DNA of 64,000 nt from contig CAMVRM010000005.1 in NCBI GenBank assembly GCA_947169885.1, forward strand, positions 26,327-90,326, written 5' to 3'. The notes under the pieces were generated by a model, which saw nothing but the letters and a program-made list of their open reading frames with translations, was not told the DNA's origin and made no database searches. Below, piece after piece: positions 2,727-64,000 of the stretch. This DNA comes from an uncultured Ruminococcus sp. Lineage in GTDB: Bacteria; Bacillota; Clostridia; Oscillospirales; Ruminococcaceae. A program made the position numbers and the translations under genes. How positions within the stretch are numbered: position 1 is the stretch's first letter; each line of letters opens with the position of its first letter.

Positions 2727-4459
2727 TACTTGCGCTTTTCCCACTTCAAGCCCTTTGACAGAGTGTAAGCACGAGTCTCATCAAGAGGCATCGGCTTTCC
2801 GAAGTAGAAACCCTGCGCACGTTCACAGCCTATCTGTTTTAAGAACTCGAACTGTTCGGCGTTCTCAACGCCCTCGCACAGCGGCGCTATCTTCATATCT
2901 CTTGCACCGTTGACGATATAGGTCATGAGCGTGCCCGTTTTTTGGTTGTGTTCAAGACTTCTCAGGAACACAAGGTCAAGCTTTAACACATCAAAGTCAT
3001 ACTCGGCGATAGTGTTGAGCGAAGAATAACCGCTCCCGAAATCGTCCAGCCAAATATGATAGCCCATTTTTCTCATGCGTTCGCACTCGCTCTTGATGTA
3101 GCCCACGTTGTCATTCAGTGCGCTCTCGGTTATCTCGATGTCAAGCATATCATACGGGATACCTGCATTTTTGCGGATCTCCTCGATTATCCCGAAAATA
3201 TCGCATAGTTCAAAATCCAGCCGTGAGATATTTACGGACACGGGAACAGCATCTTCCCCCTTGTCGATAAGCATTTTCAGGTCATCGCAGACTTTTTTCA
3301 CAACATATTTGTCGACTATATGAATAAGGTGGAACTGTTCCAGCGTTTCGATAAAATCCGCAGGTGACAGAAGTCCGAACTTGTCATCTACCCAGCGCAC
3401 AAGTGCTTCATAACCGCATATCTCGCCGCTCCCTACTCTGATAACAGGCTGATAGTAGACCTTGATATGTTCCTTTTCGATAGCCTCGTCTATGTGGTCG
3501 ACAACATACTGCTGACGGCGCAGTTTGTCTCTCAGCATTTCATCATAGATGCAGTAGATCATATCATGGCGCAGTTTTACACTGTTGCAGGCAAGACGTG
3601 CATGGTCGCAGGCAAGCCCCACTTCGGAATTTCTTCCGCTCATGAAGAAAACACCTGCCTTGATCCGGACTTTTTTGTTCACGTCCTCAGAAAGCAGAAG
3701 CCGCTTATAGACTCTTTCGATAGAAGCGCCGATCTCCTCACGAGTGCCTGTGTCGCAGACGAAAAAGTGGTCATCAGAAAAACGTGCGACTGTCCCCTCG
3801 GGAAACTCCTCACGCAGAAGCCTTGCAAGTCCGCAGAGAAGTTCATCACCCAGTTTGAAACCATGACGCTCGTTATAAAGCTTGAAGTTCGGTATGTCAA
3901 AATGGATTATTGCATAGTCCTTGCGGTGGCTGTCGTGCTTTGAGAGTAGCATCTGCACCTTGTAATAGAAAAAGGACATATTATAAAGCCCCGTCAGCTT
4001 GTCAGTCTCCTGATTGCGTGAAAGTATCTCGGCTTCGGCAAAGGAATTCCTGCTTTGGTTGAAGTATTCGTTCTGATCAACATCAACGATAAAAACGTAG
4101 TAGTACCCAACGCCGCCCATTTTGTGGAGCAGATGTCCGAAATCCTCGATATAGCGCACCTCGCCCTGCTTTGTAACGATGCGGTAGCGGACGTAATCAT
4201 GCCGCTTTTCGCCGAAGATCGTCTGAGCCTGGATCTCGTTCTGGATCTTGTTTATGTCGTCAGGGTGTACCATTCCCTGAAATGAGCCGCCGATATATTC
4301 AAGAAACTCCTCATAAGTATCACAGCCGAACATCTTCACAACATTCGCATCTGCAAAGATAAGCATTTCCTCATCGCTCGCTTCGTAAATAAAAAAACCG
4401 CCGGGCAGTCCCATAGGAATATTTCCGTATACACATCTTTCAGCCATATCATTATCCAT
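2726..4459 (-). CDS. PAS - degenerate GGDEF - EAL c-di-GMP phosphodiesterase-type protein
   Basis: EAL motifs present: 'YEALVRW', 'DIEITES', 'LDDFGSGYSSL', 'EGVE', 'QGFYFGKP'. The GGDEF position reads 'SDDHF'. Start moved to the ATG at 4459, which has a GGGAG RBS; the ORF track started at a TTG at 4480. Confidence 0.85.
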   Translation of the reverse strand: MDNDMAERCVYGNIPMGLPGGFFIYEASDEEMLIFADANVVKMFGCDTYEEFLEYIGGSFQGMVHPDDINKIQNEIQAQTIFGEKRHDYVRYRIVTKQGEVRYIEDFGHLLHKMGGVGYYYVFIVDVDQNEYFNQSRNSFAEAEILSRNQETDKLTGLYNMSFFYYKVQMLLSKHDSHRKDYAIIHFDIPNFKLYNERHGFKLGDELLCGLARLLREEFPEGTVARFSDDHFFVCDTGTREEIGASIERVYKRLLLSEDVNKKVRIKAGVFFMSGRNSEVGLACDHARLACNSVKLRHDMIYCIYDEMLRDKLRRQQYVVDHIDEAIEKEHIKVYYQPVIRVGSGEICGYEALVRWVDDKFGLLSPADFIETLEQFHLIHIVDKYVVKKVCDDLKMLIDKGEDAVPVSVNISRLDFELCDIFGIIEEIRKNAGIPYDMLDIEITESALNDNVGYIKSECERMRKMGYHIWLDDFGSGYSSLNTIAEYDFDVLKLDLVFLRSLEHNQKTGTLMTYIVNGARDMKIAPLCEGVENAEQFEFLKQIGCERAQGFYFGKPMPLDETRAYTLSKGLKWEKRK

Positions 4460-4627
4460 ATTATCAGCTCCCACAAACAAATATGAAATAACTGTTGAAT
4501 TATATCACTTATATTTATAAGTATAGCACATCAGTTCCAAAATTGTGTGAACTTTCTGTTAATTATTGTATACAATACTCAAATGTACCGGCAACAATTA
4601 TTCCAAAATTGTTATGAGTATTTTAAA

Positions 4628-4657
4628 TTGACAAGCAAGCGTTATCTGTGATATAAT
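4628..4657 (+). promoter_or_regulatory. sigma-A-type promoter (TTGACA-18-TATAAT, extended -10 TG)
   Basis: TTGACA at 4628-4633 and TGATATAAT ending at 4657, upstream of ORF 4680. Confidence 0.6.
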
Positions 4658-4679
4658 AGTACCAAAGGGGTGAACGGAC

Positions 4680-5456
4680 ATGAGAGAGAACTTTCGGATA
4701 CTGCCTGAAAGCGTGAGAGAAACTTCACTGCGTTCGGACTATCTGCGCATCGGCAGGGGCAGAGGCGAACTTTACGGCGGTAATCAGTCGGCATTCGGAG
4801 GACTTATCGAAAATACAGGCTGCGGACTTATCGCAATGGGGGATATTTCTCTTTATCTTTCGGGAAAAACAAAACTTACAACTGACGAATATCAAAAGTA
4901 TATCCGAGACTTCAACGCACGTTTCGTTCGGCTGAGAATGCTGGGCGGCTTGCTCGGAAAGCTTTTCGGTATGTGCAGTATCGACGGCAGGAGCGGCATT
5001 CTGCTAAGAGGTTATTTCCGCAAGAACCGCACTCCCCTTTCGGCAAGAGCCGTTCCGCTTCCCGTCAGCCGCCGTGACATGAAAAAGCCTGCTTGCGAGC
5101 GAAAATGCTTTCGGCTGATAGAACGTTCGCTGTCTGCGGACAAGCCCGTTATCATCGGCGTGGGCGTTTCAAAGTCGCACAAACTGCCTATGTACGTAAG
5201 GAACGCCGATGACACTGCGCTTTTCGAGCGGAAGAACGCCACATCAAACCACTATGTCACGGTCACGGGTGCGCTTGTCTGCACCAACGCCGAAACGCAG
5301 GAACAGACCGTACTATTCCGTATATCTTCTTGGGGAAAAATGTACTACATAGACCTTGACGAACTTTACGAACACGTTACCGCCGACAAAGGGCTTTACG
5401 GCTTTGCTGTCGGGCGCATATCGAACAATCTTACTCTTATAAAGGACAAAAAATAA
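4680..5456 (+). CDS. hypothetical protein, possible C39/BtrH-like cysteine peptidase fold
   Basis: ORF with RBS and an upstream consensus promoter. Candidate nucleophile 'NTGCGLIAMGD' and a downstream 'NHYVTVTG' His. The fold assignment is tentative. Confidence 0.35.
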   Translation: MRENFRILPESVRETSLRSDYLRIGRGRGELYGGNQSAFGGLIENTGCGLIAMGDISLYLSGKTKLTTDEYQKYIRDFNARFVRLRMLGGLLGKLFGMCSIDGRSGILLRGYFRKNRTPLSARAVPLPVSRRDMKKPACERKCFRLIERSLSADKPVIIGVGVSKSHKLPMYVRNADDTALFERKNATSNHYVTVTGALVCTNAETQEQTVLFRISSWGKMYYIDLDELYEHVTADKGLYGFAVGRISNNLTLIKDKK

Positions 5457-5491: not shown

Positions 5492-5654
5492 AGAACCTGT
5501 CTTCACAAGACTCTGTACGTGTCTTTTCAACGATATTCAGTCGCTTTCTGCGTTGAAAAACCTTGCAGTGCGACAGCACAACTGCGGTTTTTCGCCTTGA
5601 AATCGACTAAATCTCGCTGAAAATCCACGCACATTTCTTGTGAAGACAGGTTCT
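5492..5654. repeat. split palindromic repeat element (left arm+loop 5492-5525, ~100-nt insert, loop+right arm 5626-5654)
   Basis: The left half is identical to other copies up to TCTT. The right half is 'cacgcacatt'+TCTTGTGAAGACAGGTTCT and ends 3 nt before the stop of ORF 5658..7556. Confidence 0.8.
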
Positions 5655-5657
5655 TAT

Positions 5658-7556
5658 TTAACAGCCCCAGAATTTATACAATTCATAGAAAACAATAGCA
5701 CCTGCACAAAGCAAATTCGCAGCGATGTTCAGCGCCGCTATAACTTTGTAAAGCGTTGTCTTATCCTTGCCGACAACGAGCGTAACTGCCGAGCCTGCCG
5801 CAGATACGCCGCAGATACCGCCGCATATCATCTGCAATATACCGAAGACTGTCATGCACATTATCGGTATGCCGCCTGTGTATTTGTAATAGACGATAAA
5901 GCTTGTCAGCAGGGTGAGCGCAGATACGAGCCTTGCCCACTGGGATATGCTCATAAGCGCCGAGCCTGCAAGCTTTGTGTCACGGTGGGTGCGGAACAGT
6001 TTTAGCCTTATGCGCAGCATATACGTTCCTGCGACTGCTGAAAGAAGATACGCCGTCAGAAGCAGAAGCTTCGGAAGATAGAACTTATCCCACGTCACGT
6101 CCGCCGATGCACTTTCCAGCAGCACCGAACCGTCAGAAAGTGTTCGTCTGCCGAGTATCAACGCCGAATCTGCGCCCTCGTTCAGCAGACTAATGCCTGT
6201 TAACTGCAAAACATTTCCGTCAAGCTCGTCAAACGGCTCATCAAACTGTATCGCACCGAGTACAGGTATGTATTTGAGCATACCCTTGTACTGCGAACGT
6301 GAGATGAGAAAATACTTTCCCGAATAGTCAGCCTTTCCGACAGGCTCGCCGTAGGTATCAGACGCAAGTTCTCCGAAAACGTAAGTCGGCGCAAAGTTCA
6401 TGAGCCAGCTGCTCCCTAAACCCTCATTGTGCATGATGACAATGCCGAATTTCGACTCGGGGTCAAATTCCATGTCTGCCTGCCCGAAGACCGTTCCGCC
6501 TGTGTGGAACAGCGTGCGGACTTTATGCTCATTGCAGAAGAAGCCGTGACAATTTACGGGTATATCCGAATCGCCGTAAAAGTCGGTGGCTGAGAACAGC
6601 TCCTGCTGTGTTTCCTTGTTTTTGAACAGTGGCGCATCATCGTTCATGAGCGCCTGAGTATAGGTCACAAGGTCGCTGACTGTGCCTGTCGCCGAACCTG
6701 CGGGGTATGCGCCCACATAGAAAAGCCTGCTGCCCATATCCACGTTGTTCACGCCGATCTCGTAGCTGTGCATTTTTTTGCGCTGTTCGCAGACACGGCT
6801 GTTGTCGCTGTGGTCGGGAGAGATAGAGGTATGCTCCATACCCAGCGGCTCAAAGATATTCTTTCTGACATACTCGCCGTAATCCATACCGCTCACGCAT
6901 TCGATAACATAGCCTGCAACAGCTGCTCCGTAATTGGAATAAGCCACACGCTCACCGGGGCGTGTCACCTGTGCAGGTTCGATACTCTGCAAGGCATCTT
7001 TGAGCGGCGGTATCGTGTCACCGTCCTCTATCCATATAGAGCGGGTAGTCTCGCACCAGCCTGCGTTGTGGTTCATGATATTCAGCATGGTTATCGGGTC
7101 ATCATAGGAAAGCTTCTGAAAGAACCCCTCGGGAAGATACTCACGCACATCACGTTCCAGATCAAGCTTGCCCTGTTCGACAAGCTGCATTGCACTTACC
7201 CAGATAAGAGTTTTTGAAATGCTCCCCCACTCGAACACGCTTTCATCATCGGTGGGTATCCCGTTTTCATAATCGGTATAGCCGTAGTGACCCGTGTAGA
7301 TGACCTCATCGCCCCTGAATATCGCAAGCGTTGCACCGCCTAAGTGAGTGTTTTCAAGGCTTTCGGAACATTTCTCCTCCATTTCGTCCTCGATATTTCG
7401 GAGCGCTTCTTTAAGTTCAAGACCCGACGGAAGAATGATGCTCTCTTTCTTGTCCTCAGTCTCCTGCGCTTCTTCCGCAAAGACATTCACCGAACTGCCT
7501 ATAATAAGCATTGCCGAAGCGAGGACGGCTGTTGTTTTCTTTATGATATTTTTCAT
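5658..7556 (-). CDS. beta-lactamase/PBP4-family serine hydrolase with signal peptide and C-terminal polytopic membrane domain
   Basis: SxxK motif 'WGSISKTLIW'. Class-C beta-lactamase-like core and about 4 C-terminal TM helices. ATG at 7556 has an AAGGAG RBS. Confidence 0.8.
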   Translation of the reverse strand: MKNIIKKTTAVLASAMLIIGSSVNVFAEEAQETEDKKESIILPSGLELKEALRNIEDEMEEKCSESLENTHLGGATLAIFRGDEVIYTGHYGYTDYENGIPTDDESVFEWGSISKTLIWVSAMQLVEQGKLDLERDVREYLPEGFFQKLSYDDPITMLNIMNHNAGWCETTRSIWIEDGDTIPPLKDALQSIEPAQVTRPGERVAYSNYGAAVAGYVIECVSGMDYGEYVRKNIFEPLGMEHTSISPDHSDNSRVCEQRKKMHSYEIGVNNVDMGSRLFYVGAYPAGSATGTVSDLVTYTQALMNDDAPLFKNKETQQELFSATDFYGDSDIPVNCHGFFCNEHKVRTLFHTGGTVFGQADMEFDPESKFGIVIMHNEGLGSSWLMNFAPTYVFGELASDTYGEPVGKADYSGKYFLISRSQYKGMLKYIPVLGAIQFDEPFDELDGNVLQLTGISLLNEGADSALILGRRTLSDGSVLLESASADVTWDKFYLPKLLLLTAYLLSAVAGTYMLRIRLKLFRTHRDTKLAGSALMSISQWARLVSALTLLTSFIVYYKYTGGIPIMCMTVFGILQMICGGICGVSAAGSAVTLVVGKDKTTLYKVIAALNIAANLLCAGAIVFYELYKFWGC

Positions 7557-45068: not shown

Positions 45069-45187
45069 AATTTTTTCCTCTTATTACTAAAACATCATTA
45101 CATATTATATCACAGCAGAAAATTAAATGCAACAGTCAAAATTGCATAAATTATGGCAAAAAAATAAAGTTATCATTTTAAACGCTC

Positions 45188-45236
45188 AGAACCTGTCTTC
45201 ACAAGGCTCTGTACGTGTCTTGTGAAGACAGGTTCT
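45188..45236. repeat. palindromic repeat element copy 4 (between divergent genes)
   Basis: AGAACCTGTCTTCACAAG-gctctgtacgtg-TCTTGTGAAGACAGGTTCT. Confidence 0.9.
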
Positions 45237-45307
45237 TACTATTTGTATAGATAGTATATAAATGATACTATGTTTTTGTACAAATAGCAGAAAATCTGCG
45301 CAAGCTA

Positions 45308-62855: not shown

Positions 62856-63028
62856 AGTTCACACTCCTTTTATATCATTATACAAATACAACAGCGAAAA
62901 GTCAATATAAATAAGAAATTAGAAATAAGAATTAAGAAAGTTCTAAAAATCAGCACAAATGAAATGTGAGCGCCAGAGATTCAAAAGTTTTAGGAAAGAG
63001 AGTCCAGAGGGGATAACCCTTTTTCCTG

Positions 63029-63091
63029 CCGTGCGAAGCTAAGGCGAAGGGTATTCCCCTTTGGTGGGAGTTTCGCCTTAGCTGCGCACGG
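63029..63091. repeat. long GC-rich hairpin (20-bp stem, 1 mismatch, 23-nt loop)
   Basis: CCGTGCGAAGCTAAGGCGAA ... TTCGCCTTAGCTGCGCACGG. Confidence 0.85.
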
Positions 63092-63316
63092 CAAGGCAAA
63101 GTCCTCATTCGCCCCTATGGGGCGATAGAAAGAAAAGTCAAAACAAAAGCAGTCCAAAGCGCTCAAACTCAAAGCCACATCTAAAAATCGGCATTCCAAA
63201 TACACACTAACAAAATCAATCAAAATTAAAGACTATATCCATATCGGTTAGAAGCACCAAAAATGCCGATTTTTATTTTTCGGAACAGCGTAAGCGCATT
63301 CCGAAAAAAATCCCTA

Positions 63317-63352
63317 AGAACCTGTCTTCACAAGAAATGTGCGTGTCTTGTG
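63317..63352. repeat. truncated palindromic repeat element copy 5
   Basis: AGAACCTGTCTTCACAAGA-aatgtgcgtg-TCTTGTG, after which similarity ends; AAGACAGGTTCT is missing. Confidence 0.8.
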
Positions 63353-63382
63353 GCATTAAAGTTTAAGTCGAGTGGTTATTAA

Positions 63383-63472
63383 GGCGTGTAAACTACACGC
63401 CATACAAGCCGATACACGCCATAGGTACACGCCCAAAACAACGTATTTACGTTGTTTACACGCCTACACGCC
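63383..63472. repeat. left arm of long imperfect inverted repeat carrying five TACACGCC 8-mers (+1 inverted copy)
   Basis: TACACGCC at 63394, 63413, 63426, 63457 and 63465. GGCGTGTA at 63383. Confidence 0.85.
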
Positions 63473-63915
63473 ATTTTAGTAAGTTGTCCCTATATTATGT
63501 ATGTGCAAAATCAACCGGGGAATATAGTCACCTTACTTCAAAATTCGATAGCAAATTAAACGTTGAAAATTCTCTTTTCAGGAAGTTCTCTTTAAATTGT
63601 ATATTCTTGATTTCAAGTAGGGCGACTATATCCCTTTTCAGTGTCATGATTTCAGTATTACGATTGCGAAGCATCTCCAAAGCTGAATGTCAGGGAAACA
63701 ATGCAGGATAGCTGTAATATCCCAGATTTTCTGGAAGATGATGACAGGGTGATGTATGGGGAGAAGCTGTTTTGAAACATGATACTTTCATTTCATGGGT
63801 AAAGCAGAATGAGTATAAACTGAAAGTGCATTATTCCACAAATATTGCAAGCAACGGCAGTCATGTCTGAGGATTCAAGAGTATCACTGTAAAATATAAG
63901 GCAAGTTGCTTTTAA

Positions 63916-64000
63916 GGCGTGTAGGCGTGTAAAGCACGTAATTGCAAGCTTTTTGCCGTGTAGGTCAGGCGTGTGACCGCAGAAATGGCGTGTAGGATAC
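63916..64000. repeat. right arm of the inverted repeat (GGCGTGTA 8-mers), continues beyond window
   Basis: GGCGTGTA at 63916, 63924 and 63987, with 1-mismatch variants at 63955 and 63968. Offsets 0/8/39/52/71 mirror the left arm exactly. The last 3 nt, 'tac', fit the predicted next copy. Confidence 0.85.

Follow-up and report, generated by a model that had tools for sequence, protein, structure and literature searches.

The end of this 64,000-nt stretch of DNA from an uncultured Ruminococcus sp. (contig CAMVRM010000005.1, positions 26,327 to 90,326; the whole stretch is referred to here as the window) raises the question of what two mirror-image arrays of one octamer, TACACGCC, are doing around an AT-rich core of 443 bp. 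The initial annotation of this DNA had treated the two arms as a single unit and had named transposon ends, iterons flanking an AT-rich replication origin, and looping operators as candidates. The reading favored by the comparisons presented here, with a probability of roughly 0.8, is that the arms are iterons of an initiator protein, Rep, and come from replication origins of the pri-rep-ori type (primase gene, rep gene, and origin), which would belong to mobilizable elements of Ruminococcus and other Oscillospiraceae and of which the window holds relics.

The mirrored TACACGCC arrays are real and non-random. The octamer occurs in 11 exact copies in the 64-kb window, versus 1.16 expected, and none of 100 dinucleotide-preserving shuffles of the window reached that number, the largest count being 5. 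Nine of the 11 exact copies fall in the final 618 nt (63383-63994). On the plus strand they start at 63394, 63413, 63426, 63457, and 63465, while the complement is found exactly at 63383, 63916, 63924, and 63987. Two further octamers on the minus strand carry one mismatch (63955, GCCGTGTA, and 63968, GGCGTGTG), and a degenerate sixth octamer, TACAAGCC, lies at 63403. All octamer positions that had been claimed for both arms were found, and the mirrored offsets of 0, 8, 39, 52, and 71, counted from the inner ends, were reproduced on both sides. The segments 63388-63486 and 63902-64000 are 71% complementary across 99 nt. Between the arms, the octamers match at 38 of 40 positions and the spacers at 20 of 39 (Fisher p = 8e-6). 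The earlier suggestion of selection on a multi-site protein-binding architecture is supported. The accompanying picture of conserved sites and diverged spacers holds for these counts, but the divergence is incomplete, as the 23-nt spacer is identical at 14 of 23 positions. Likewise, the innermost run is indeed identical in both arms, but it measures 18 nt (TTTACACGCCTACACGCC) instead of 19. The core is AT-rich as described (GC 32-41%, versus ~55% in the flanking genes), its longest open reading frame (ORF) has 75 aa, and in composition it resembles other intergenic DNA of the window.

The evidence that carries the origin reading comes from relatives in which the same arms are found in another arrangement. 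These were collected by scanning one genome per species with the 16-mer tandem pair TACACGCCTACACGCC, and the loci were labelled L followed by a number. The matches include many single chance pairs in unrelated phyla, which makes the raw match count uninformative, but among the matches listed there is a clear excess of multi-copy loci from Ruminococcus, Oscillospiraceae, and other Clostridia. In five loci (L080, from R. albus 8, as well as L016, L044, L097, and L103), BLAST finds the right arm of the window (63857-63995, 81-86% identity) followed directly by its left arm (63413-63487, 83-87%), and the palindrome thus formed sits between the stop codon of rep and an HTH_17/excisionase gene. Locus L110, which is cut by the block end, likewise has this origin together with the HTH_17 and integrase genes. 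The palindrome of L080 spans ~165 bp and comprises, after the gene stop, five GGCGTGTA-like 8-mers, 3 nt, and five TACACGCC-like 8-mers; the left arm is followed by 'ATTTTATCAAGTTGT', and then by a ribosome-binding site and the start of the next gene. The halves of this group of palindromes keep the same offsets as the arms of the window. In intact relatives, only 3 nt separate the innermost iterons and an AT-rich centre is absent, with the exception of L135, whose tandem pairs surround an AT-rich stretch of ~110 bp. More generally, the TACACGCC cluster begins 0 to ~25 nt from the rep stop in 13 loci among the matches listed (Rep 48-100% identity), and over these loci the gene downstream of the cluster varies (HTH_17, ParM-like, or MobV-like relaxase), as does the internal layout. 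In the window, too, both arrays follow a rep 3' end, with TAA codons at 63380-63382 and 63913-63915.

Aligned with these palindromes (alignment A1), the end of the window is read as the relics of two diverged origin copies, A and B, lying head to tail, whose parts are the following:

63353-63382, plus strand: last ~30 nt of the rep gene of copy A, a P4-family superfamily 3 (SF3) helicase gene, ending in the TAA stop.
63383-63390, minus strand: the sole remaining right-arm iteron of copy A, GGCGTGTA, placed by alignment A1 and the sequence.
63394-63472, plus strand: complete left arm of copy A, made up of five perfect TACACGCC iterons at the five plus-strand starts given above.
63473-63681, plus strand: post-origin region of copy A, collinear by blastn with the DNA downstream of the R. 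albus 7 pRUMAL02 origin.
63526-63627, no strand assigned: insertion of 102 bp that is missing from the R. albus 7 homologue.
63678-63915, plus strand: rep pseudogene of copy B, corresponding to residues ~364-391 and 413-461 of R. albus 8 Rep and ending in the original TAA.
63916-63994, minus strand: complete right arm of copy B, with iterons at 63916, 63924, 63955, 63968, and 63987.
63995-64000, plus strand: palindrome centre GGA of copy B and TAC, the first 3 nt of its expected left arm (alignment A1), where the end of the window cuts it.

Copy A begins with 38 nt (63353-63390) that are 94.7% identical to the last 30 nt of rep and the first iteron of L044 and L016. This region is also a direct repeat, at 79% identity, of 63890-63923, the two being the rep ends of the two copies; comparison of the window detected no rep sequence upstream of 63353. 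The single right-arm iteron adjoins both the stop codon, like the first direct iteron (R1) of the relatives, and the palindrome centre, like the fifth (R5). Because of this double adjacency, and as R1 and R5 lie 71 nt apart in relatives, copy A appears to have lost 71 nt between its first and fifth direct iterons. Its 23-nt spacer contains the palindrome AAACAACGTA/TACGTTGTTT. A small palindrome with a CGTAWYTRCG-like centre occurs in the 23-nt spacer beside each tandem pair in several lineages, where it could serve as a second site or act as a hairpin or weak terminator.

The DNA that follows the left arm of copy A matches locus L139, which is R. albus 7 pRUMAL02 (NC_014825.1, 262951-275043), in four blastn segments: 63447-63498 with 6438-6489 (75%), 63496-63525 with 6646-6675 (30/30), 63628-63646 with 6672-6690 (19/19), and 63650-63681 with 6680-6711 (81%). 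The 102-bp insertion falls where L139 reads GGGGAATATCCCTTTTCAG ungapped. Imperfect terminal inverted repeats of 17 nt bound it, ATAT stands on either flank, and the inverted repeat at its ends (63519-63542 and 63611-63634) is 83% complementary, so that from its sequence it looks like a miniature inverted-repeat transposable element (MITE); no second copy was found within the window. After the insertion, at 63636-63663, there is a 14-nt tandem duplication, TTTCAGTGTCATGA / TTTCAGTATTACGA.

Copy B retains a badly damaged piece of the helicase gene, which forms the right 230 bp of the core. A tblastn search of the window with the Rep of L080 gives 63686-63769 (71%, residues 364-391) and 63769-63915 (51%, residues 413-461) in different frames, the translations reading '...RETMQDSCNIPDFLEDDDRVMYGEKL' and next 'LKHDTFISWVKQNEYKLKVHYSTNIASNGSHV', a stop, 'GFKSITVKYKASCF', and a stop. 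The lesions comprise a frameshift near 63769, an internal deletion of ~21 aa, and an in-frame TGA. The pseudogene is also matched by blastn to the rep genes of L139, L080, L044, and L016. Its original stop directly adjoins the right arm, in which the two variant iterons share the position and identity of their mismatches with those of L044, L016, and L097. In relatives, the innermost left iteron starts 3 nt past the innermost right iteron, and the 'tac' at 63998, which had been proposed as the start of a mirror arm, stands at the very place where the arm begins in these loci.

According to these data, the apparent symmetry around the 443-bp core arises because the left half of origin A faces the right half of origin B, and the two arms do not form one unit around an AT-rich core, each being half of a separate palindromic origin copy. 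Among the candidates of the initial annotation, iterons of a replication origin are of the right kind, but they do not flank an AT-rich origin, as the core is a junction of fragments and normal halves abut 3 nt apart. Its remark that no cognate gene is visible holds only for an intact gene, as the core encloses what is left of the cognate helicase gene, in frameshifted form. At the junction of the two copies, post-origin DNA meets rep at about residue 360, with a CAAA microhomology at 63678-63681. A simple tandem duplication was considered as the source of the copies; the junction and the microhomology fit it, but the rep ends are only 79% identical, and it was not adopted. Because of this low identity, the copies are likely to be old or to derive from different elements. 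No match was obtained when metagenomes were scanned with a 34-mer specific to copy B, and the same kind of scan with an iteron-spacer-iteron 21-mer matched only an unrelated high-GC tandem repeat (L140). Exact look-ups of two proteins encoded in the window, NifS (with two alternative starts) and TrmD, returned nothing, and a homologue search found the species of the window only on contigs of ~1.3 kb, the next relative being 72% identical.

The protein to which the arms are linked belongs to a recognizable family. With the TIGR01613 model ('phage/plasmid primase, P4 family', the P4-family primase C-terminal model; cut-off 108.7), the Reps of L080 and L058 score 110.3 and 110.5 bits, respectively; the R. 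albus 7 homologue is named 'phage/plasmid primase, P4 family' in RefSeq, and the L080 Rep matches DNA-primase families of PHROG. The sole PDB match of the L080 Rep is 7OLA, the PriRep5 protein of the Staphylococcus aureus pathogenicity island (SaPI) SaPI5 (E = 2.5e-5, and 5e-8 with a profile), and the alignment extends into the C-terminal domain (query 365-421 versus chain ~682-740).

Upstream of rep, L080 encodes a CHC2 zinc-finger primase-like protein and, further upstream, a MobA/VirD2-type relaxase; the rep gene itself, at 4000-5382, holds DUF5906. Downstream of the origin there are an HTH_17/excisionase-family gene and a convergent gene for a tyrosine integrase with an arm-DNA-binding domain (PF14657), and homology between genomes stops ~245 bp past the integrase start. 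Rep, the HTH_17 protein, and the integrase are 84-99% identical over up to six species-representative genomes (84% corresponding to the L103 Rep), which argues that the element is mobile. Intact elements have, in this order, genes for a relaxase, cargo, a CHC2 primase, and Rep, then the origin, and after it either xis with a tyrosine integrase gene or small ORFs with serine recombinase genes. Among the relatives, the relaxases are of the MobA/VirD2 type or MobV-like, a STAND NTPase is one example of cargo, and the recombinases belong to the tyrosine or serine class. From this gene content, the host is probably an integrative mobilizable element with a pri-rep module, or a mobilizable plasmid, and either of these fits better than a phage-inducible chromosomal island (PICI). 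No terS, capsid, or phage-interference gene was found in the element stretches seen, which did not show the set of features that defines the PICI class (int, master repressor, xis, pri-rep-ori, packaging or interference genes, and helper induction). No tRNA that could mark an attachment site was found near the window locus or in related elements.

Two other features of these elements were recorded. At the extreme right end of the element of L080 (7250-7316), a 22-codon ORF, MGNNPMVGATVACAVAVEEAMK, is kept in L103 and L110; it has a TTGACA-like box upstream, and homology between genomes ceases directly past its stop. In L107 (3389-3757) and L114 (2813-3180), the TACACGCC arms flank a 64-codon ORF between the genes for a CHC2 primase-like protein and a serine recombinase. 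No rep helicase is present in either locus, and the CHC2 primase-like gene is frameshifted in L114; these loci may represent a rep-less derivative of the pri-rep-origin module.

The assignment of the octamers to Rep has been examined in a sample that does not depend on the motif, obtained by a protein-based search of viral contigs (IMG/VR) that returned 16 Rep relatives, 14 of which were examined (38-49% identity). Inverted short repeats occur directly after the rep stop in 11 of these 14, and in ten of the 11 the repeat is other than TACACGCC, being GAACGCA, GGTACAC, CCGTACA, GCGTAC, GGGATG, or AACACGCAT. The C-terminal ~60 residues of these Reps differ along with the repeat type, and all TACACGCC-type Reps have 'NALT.LKRETF..WL..N' in common. 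The same relation is seen at closer range between R. albus 7 and R. albus 8, whose Reps are 88% identical, near-identical in residues 181-385, and different mainly in the last ~45. The R. albus 7 origin shows the 5+5 layout (offsets 0/8/39/51-52/71) with GGTGTCTT iterons, versus GGCGTGTA in R. albus 8, and the downstream module differs as well, consisting of three serine recombinases in R. albus 7 and of xis and a tyrosine integrase in R. albus 8. The pattern of identity hints at recombination, with a breakpoint within the C-terminal domain of Rep. In copy A of the window, TACACGCC iterons are joined to downstream DNA of the R. albus 7 type, and this mixture indicates that the iterons track the Rep C-terminus and not the downstream module. 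The proposal that 'LKRETF' is the sole determinant of specificity is weakened, as the R. albus 7 Rep retains it with different iterons.

Several known replication modules share this organization. In SaPIs, the origin lies directly 3' of rep and holds 6-12 iterons in two opposed sets, which are bound by the C-terminal winged helix of Rep, and PriRep5 without its C-terminal domain loses origin binding (PMC9371898). PICIs have the same layout, and their rep-ori fragments replicate (PMC6092414). The Ruminococcus-type family resembles these islands in the succession of a primase gene, an SF3 self-loading helicase-initiator, and an origin directly 3' of rep, as well as in the two opposed sets of short iterons (in the L080 group and L139, five octamers on each side at mirrored offsets). 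However, the SaPI and PICI iterons are penta- or hexamers instead of octamers in a 5+5 set with fixed offsets 0/8/39/52/71, and those islands have a central AT-rich region, whereas the Ruminococcus-type arms are 3 nt apart (except in L135, with its ~110-bp AT-rich stretch). Further differences are the presence of a relaxase in the Ruminococcus-type element, in whose examined stretches packaging or phage-interference genes were not seen, and the placement of xis and a convergent int after the origin. The window itself differs in having relics only, with a rep pseudogene.

In SGI1 (Salmonella genomic island 1), oriV is found directly downstream of rep, in the rep-xis intergenic region, and supports replication after excision (PMC7433901). 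The likeness lies in an integrative mobilizable element with an iteron origin in that same position, but the SGI1 initiator is of the RepA type and is not an SF3 helicase, and its iterons are four 17-bp direct repeats, accompanied by a DnaA box and AT-rich regions. The alpha protein of satellite phage P4 consists of an SF3 helicase followed by a C-terminal winged helix, solved as 1KA8 (PMC2777425). Rep shares this layout of an SF3 helicase and a putative C-terminal DNA-binding domain and scores above the TIGR01613 cut-off, although a profile search of the PDB with Rep did not pick up 1KA8. In the Ruminococcus-type element, unlike in P4, the CHC2 primase is encoded by a separate gene, unfused to the helicase, and the origin comes directly after rep. 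Octamers are also the target of P4 alpha, whose 'type I' iterons (TGTTCACC) lie in ori and crr; the iteron sequence of the Ruminococcus-type family is unrelated.

By analogy with these systems, the iterons would be binding sites for the C-terminal DNA-binding domain of Rep, a self-loading SF3 helicase. As in SaPIs and PICIs, this domain would bind the two opposed iteron sets, after which Rep may melt the DNA and load two hexamers, and the excised element would thereby be able to replicate. With no intact rep in view, the sites of the window would be active only in trans, or not at all.

Some observations weigh against this origin reading. The intact palindromes have no AT-rich region between their arms (3 nt only), in contrast to SaPI and PICI origins, and the helix 'LKRETF..W' is also present in the R. 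albus 7 Rep despite its other iterons. TACACGCC arms without a rep nearby occur in L088, L032, L086, L111, L026, L107, and L114. The case for origin function is made by position, covariation, and analogy with SaPI, PICI, and SGI1, and the continuation of copy B past 64000 into its own left arm is a prediction from the alignment.

The rep-less arms lead to the closest rival, in which the layout of the window is functional as it stands: it would serve in trans, as an orphan SaPI-like origin or as a Rep sink, for a Rep encoded elsewhere in the genome or brought by an incoming element. The succession of left arm, AT-rich spacer, and right arm, with the tandem pairs innermost, is also found in L088 (~430 bp), L107 and L114 (~240 bp), and L101 (~95 bp), and L135 has its tandem pairs around the AT-rich stretch mentioned above. 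Moreover, all five iterons of the copy A left arm are perfect, versus at most one of five in the left arms of intact elements, and the right arm of copy B equals that of L044 at 40 of 40 iteron positions, against an identity of only 82-86% for the rep pseudogene beside it. Against this, the spacer is a junction of post-origin DNA, the 102-bp insertion, and the rep pseudogene, the right arm of copy B almost certainly runs into its own left arm past 64000, no Rep is known in this genome, and the perfect iterons may only reflect a different parent lineage. This rival is regarded as unlikely.

A related proposal concerns the dispersed solo arms, of which at least five (L026, L032, L086, L088, and L111) are present in a single Ruminococcus genome from rabbit gut, Lapin-032 bin115, a further one being L049; the set is biased by the use of a perfect 16-mer in the search. 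A solo arm consists of a tandem TACACGCC pair, two or three further iterons, and 'ATTTTTccgAGTTGyATTATATTAT', and is intergenic, just past gene ends. Those of Lapin-032 bin115 are close copies of each other located between housekeeping genes, and by sequence the solo arms appear to be a dispersed repeat family that arose from the origin arm or is akin to it. In L088, two adjacent paralogous arms (5883-5960 and 6081-6160) are 86% identical (alignment A3) and carry the same substitution in 6/6 iterons, GGCGTGTA versus GGCGTATA (G to A, GTGTA to GTATA); the neighbours are housekeeping genes (prfA, an S1-domain gene, and pfk), with no rep nearby. This arrangement hints at a concerted switch of the iterons, a pattern as would come from tracking the specificity of a binding protein. 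Rep-less arms might then be kept as trans-acting sites, either as chromosomal Rep sinks conferring an incompatibility-type immunity to incoming elements with matching specificity or as orphan origins firing on the arrival of such a Rep. The five perfect iterons of copy A, beside a badly decayed rep pseudogene, are a hint in that direction, but this idea is rated slightly lower still than the orphan origin.

A binding partner other than Rep is considered less probable than either of these. The octamers would in that case be integrase arm sites, HTH_17/Xis operators, a ParR-type centromere, or the repeats of an invertible switch, and there is some material for this: the L080 integrase has the PF14657 domain; in many loci the next start codon follows the left tandem pair at a distance of ~45 nt, which makes a second role as operator plausible; and a ParM-like gene is found downstream in L118/L123. 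However, the downstream genes and the recombinase types vary among the TACACGCC loci, only Rep being constant with the repeat beginning at its stop; copy A couples TACACGCC to R. albus 7-type downstream DNA; and the promoter and terminator scan, which picked up the nifS promoter alone, gave no sigma-70-like promoter or other signal within the arms of the window. No support was found for looping operators, the third candidate of the initial annotation.

The least credible of all is the view that the 618-bp segment is a non-autonomous transposon, whose terminal inverted repeats, each with several transposase sites as in Tn7- or Mu-like elements or MITEs, would be the arms. Inverted multi-site arms do resemble the sub-terminal repeats of some transposons, but the tandem pairs face inward, and the symmetry passes both supposed ends (the centre at 63383-63401 and the arm restart at 63998). 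In addition, the arms abut directly after the helicase stop codon in 13 loci among the matches listed, the core as a unit is absent elsewhere in the window, in the fetched loci, and in the plasmid and phage collections, and no transposase occurs among the scanned arm-adjacent proteins (Rep, CHC2 primase, relaxase, HTH_17, tyrosine or serine recombinase, and STAND NTPase). This candidate of the initial annotation was abandoned: no result of the analysis speaks for it, the unit is not repeated in the sequences just named, the symmetry exceeds its ends, and a rep pseudogene and post-origin DNA account for the core. The phage collection gave no match to the window segment. An RNA gene in the core was also considered and rejected, with Rfam giving only sub-threshold chance matches (two microRNA families, and Clostridiales-2 with E = 0.5).

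Other repeats were noticed apart from the origin relics. A repeat of ~38 nt, taagaacctgtcttcacaagaaatgtgcgtgtcttgtggc, with the hairpin CACAAGA/TCTTGTG, is present in at least nine copies in the window, often as inverted pairs, and looks like a REP-like intergenic repeat family; the positions listed are these:

63315-63352, 1325-1375, 2674-2728, 5492-5525, 5626-5656, and 45185-45238: the taagaacctgtcttcacaagaaatgtgcgtgtcttgtggc repeat.

Between nifS and the arms there is a long imperfect hairpin (63019-63101, cctgccgtgcgaagctaaggcgaag...cttcgccttagctgcgcacggcaagg), for which Rfam gave only a far sub-threshold match to mir-1267 (E = 0.046) and the Clostridiales-2 match (E = 0.5) at 62990-63054, overlapping the left arm of the hairpin. 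Pure head-to-tail (TACACGCC)n arrays of up to 11 copies occur in viral contigs and contigs of metagenome-assembled genomes (L120 3-90, L119 4606-4653, L075 4224-4340, and L023 1504-1551), and are probably octamer microsatellites and not origin arms.

For the window, the result is mainly a correction, in that its symmetry is that of two relic halves and not of a new mobile element or regulatory device. Beyond the window, the octamer-iteron origins tied to P4/SaPI-like self-loading helicases appear, from the sequences compared, to constitute an undescribed family of a known origin type, which occurs in mobilizable elements of rumen and gut Oscillospiraceae; at least six species-representative genomes carry the same element, with proteins 94-98% identical. 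The pair formed by R. albus 7 and R. albus 8 provides a ready system for mapping how the C-terminal domain of the helicase reads its iterons, and relic iteron arrays in the chromosome could matter for incompatibility with incoming elements.

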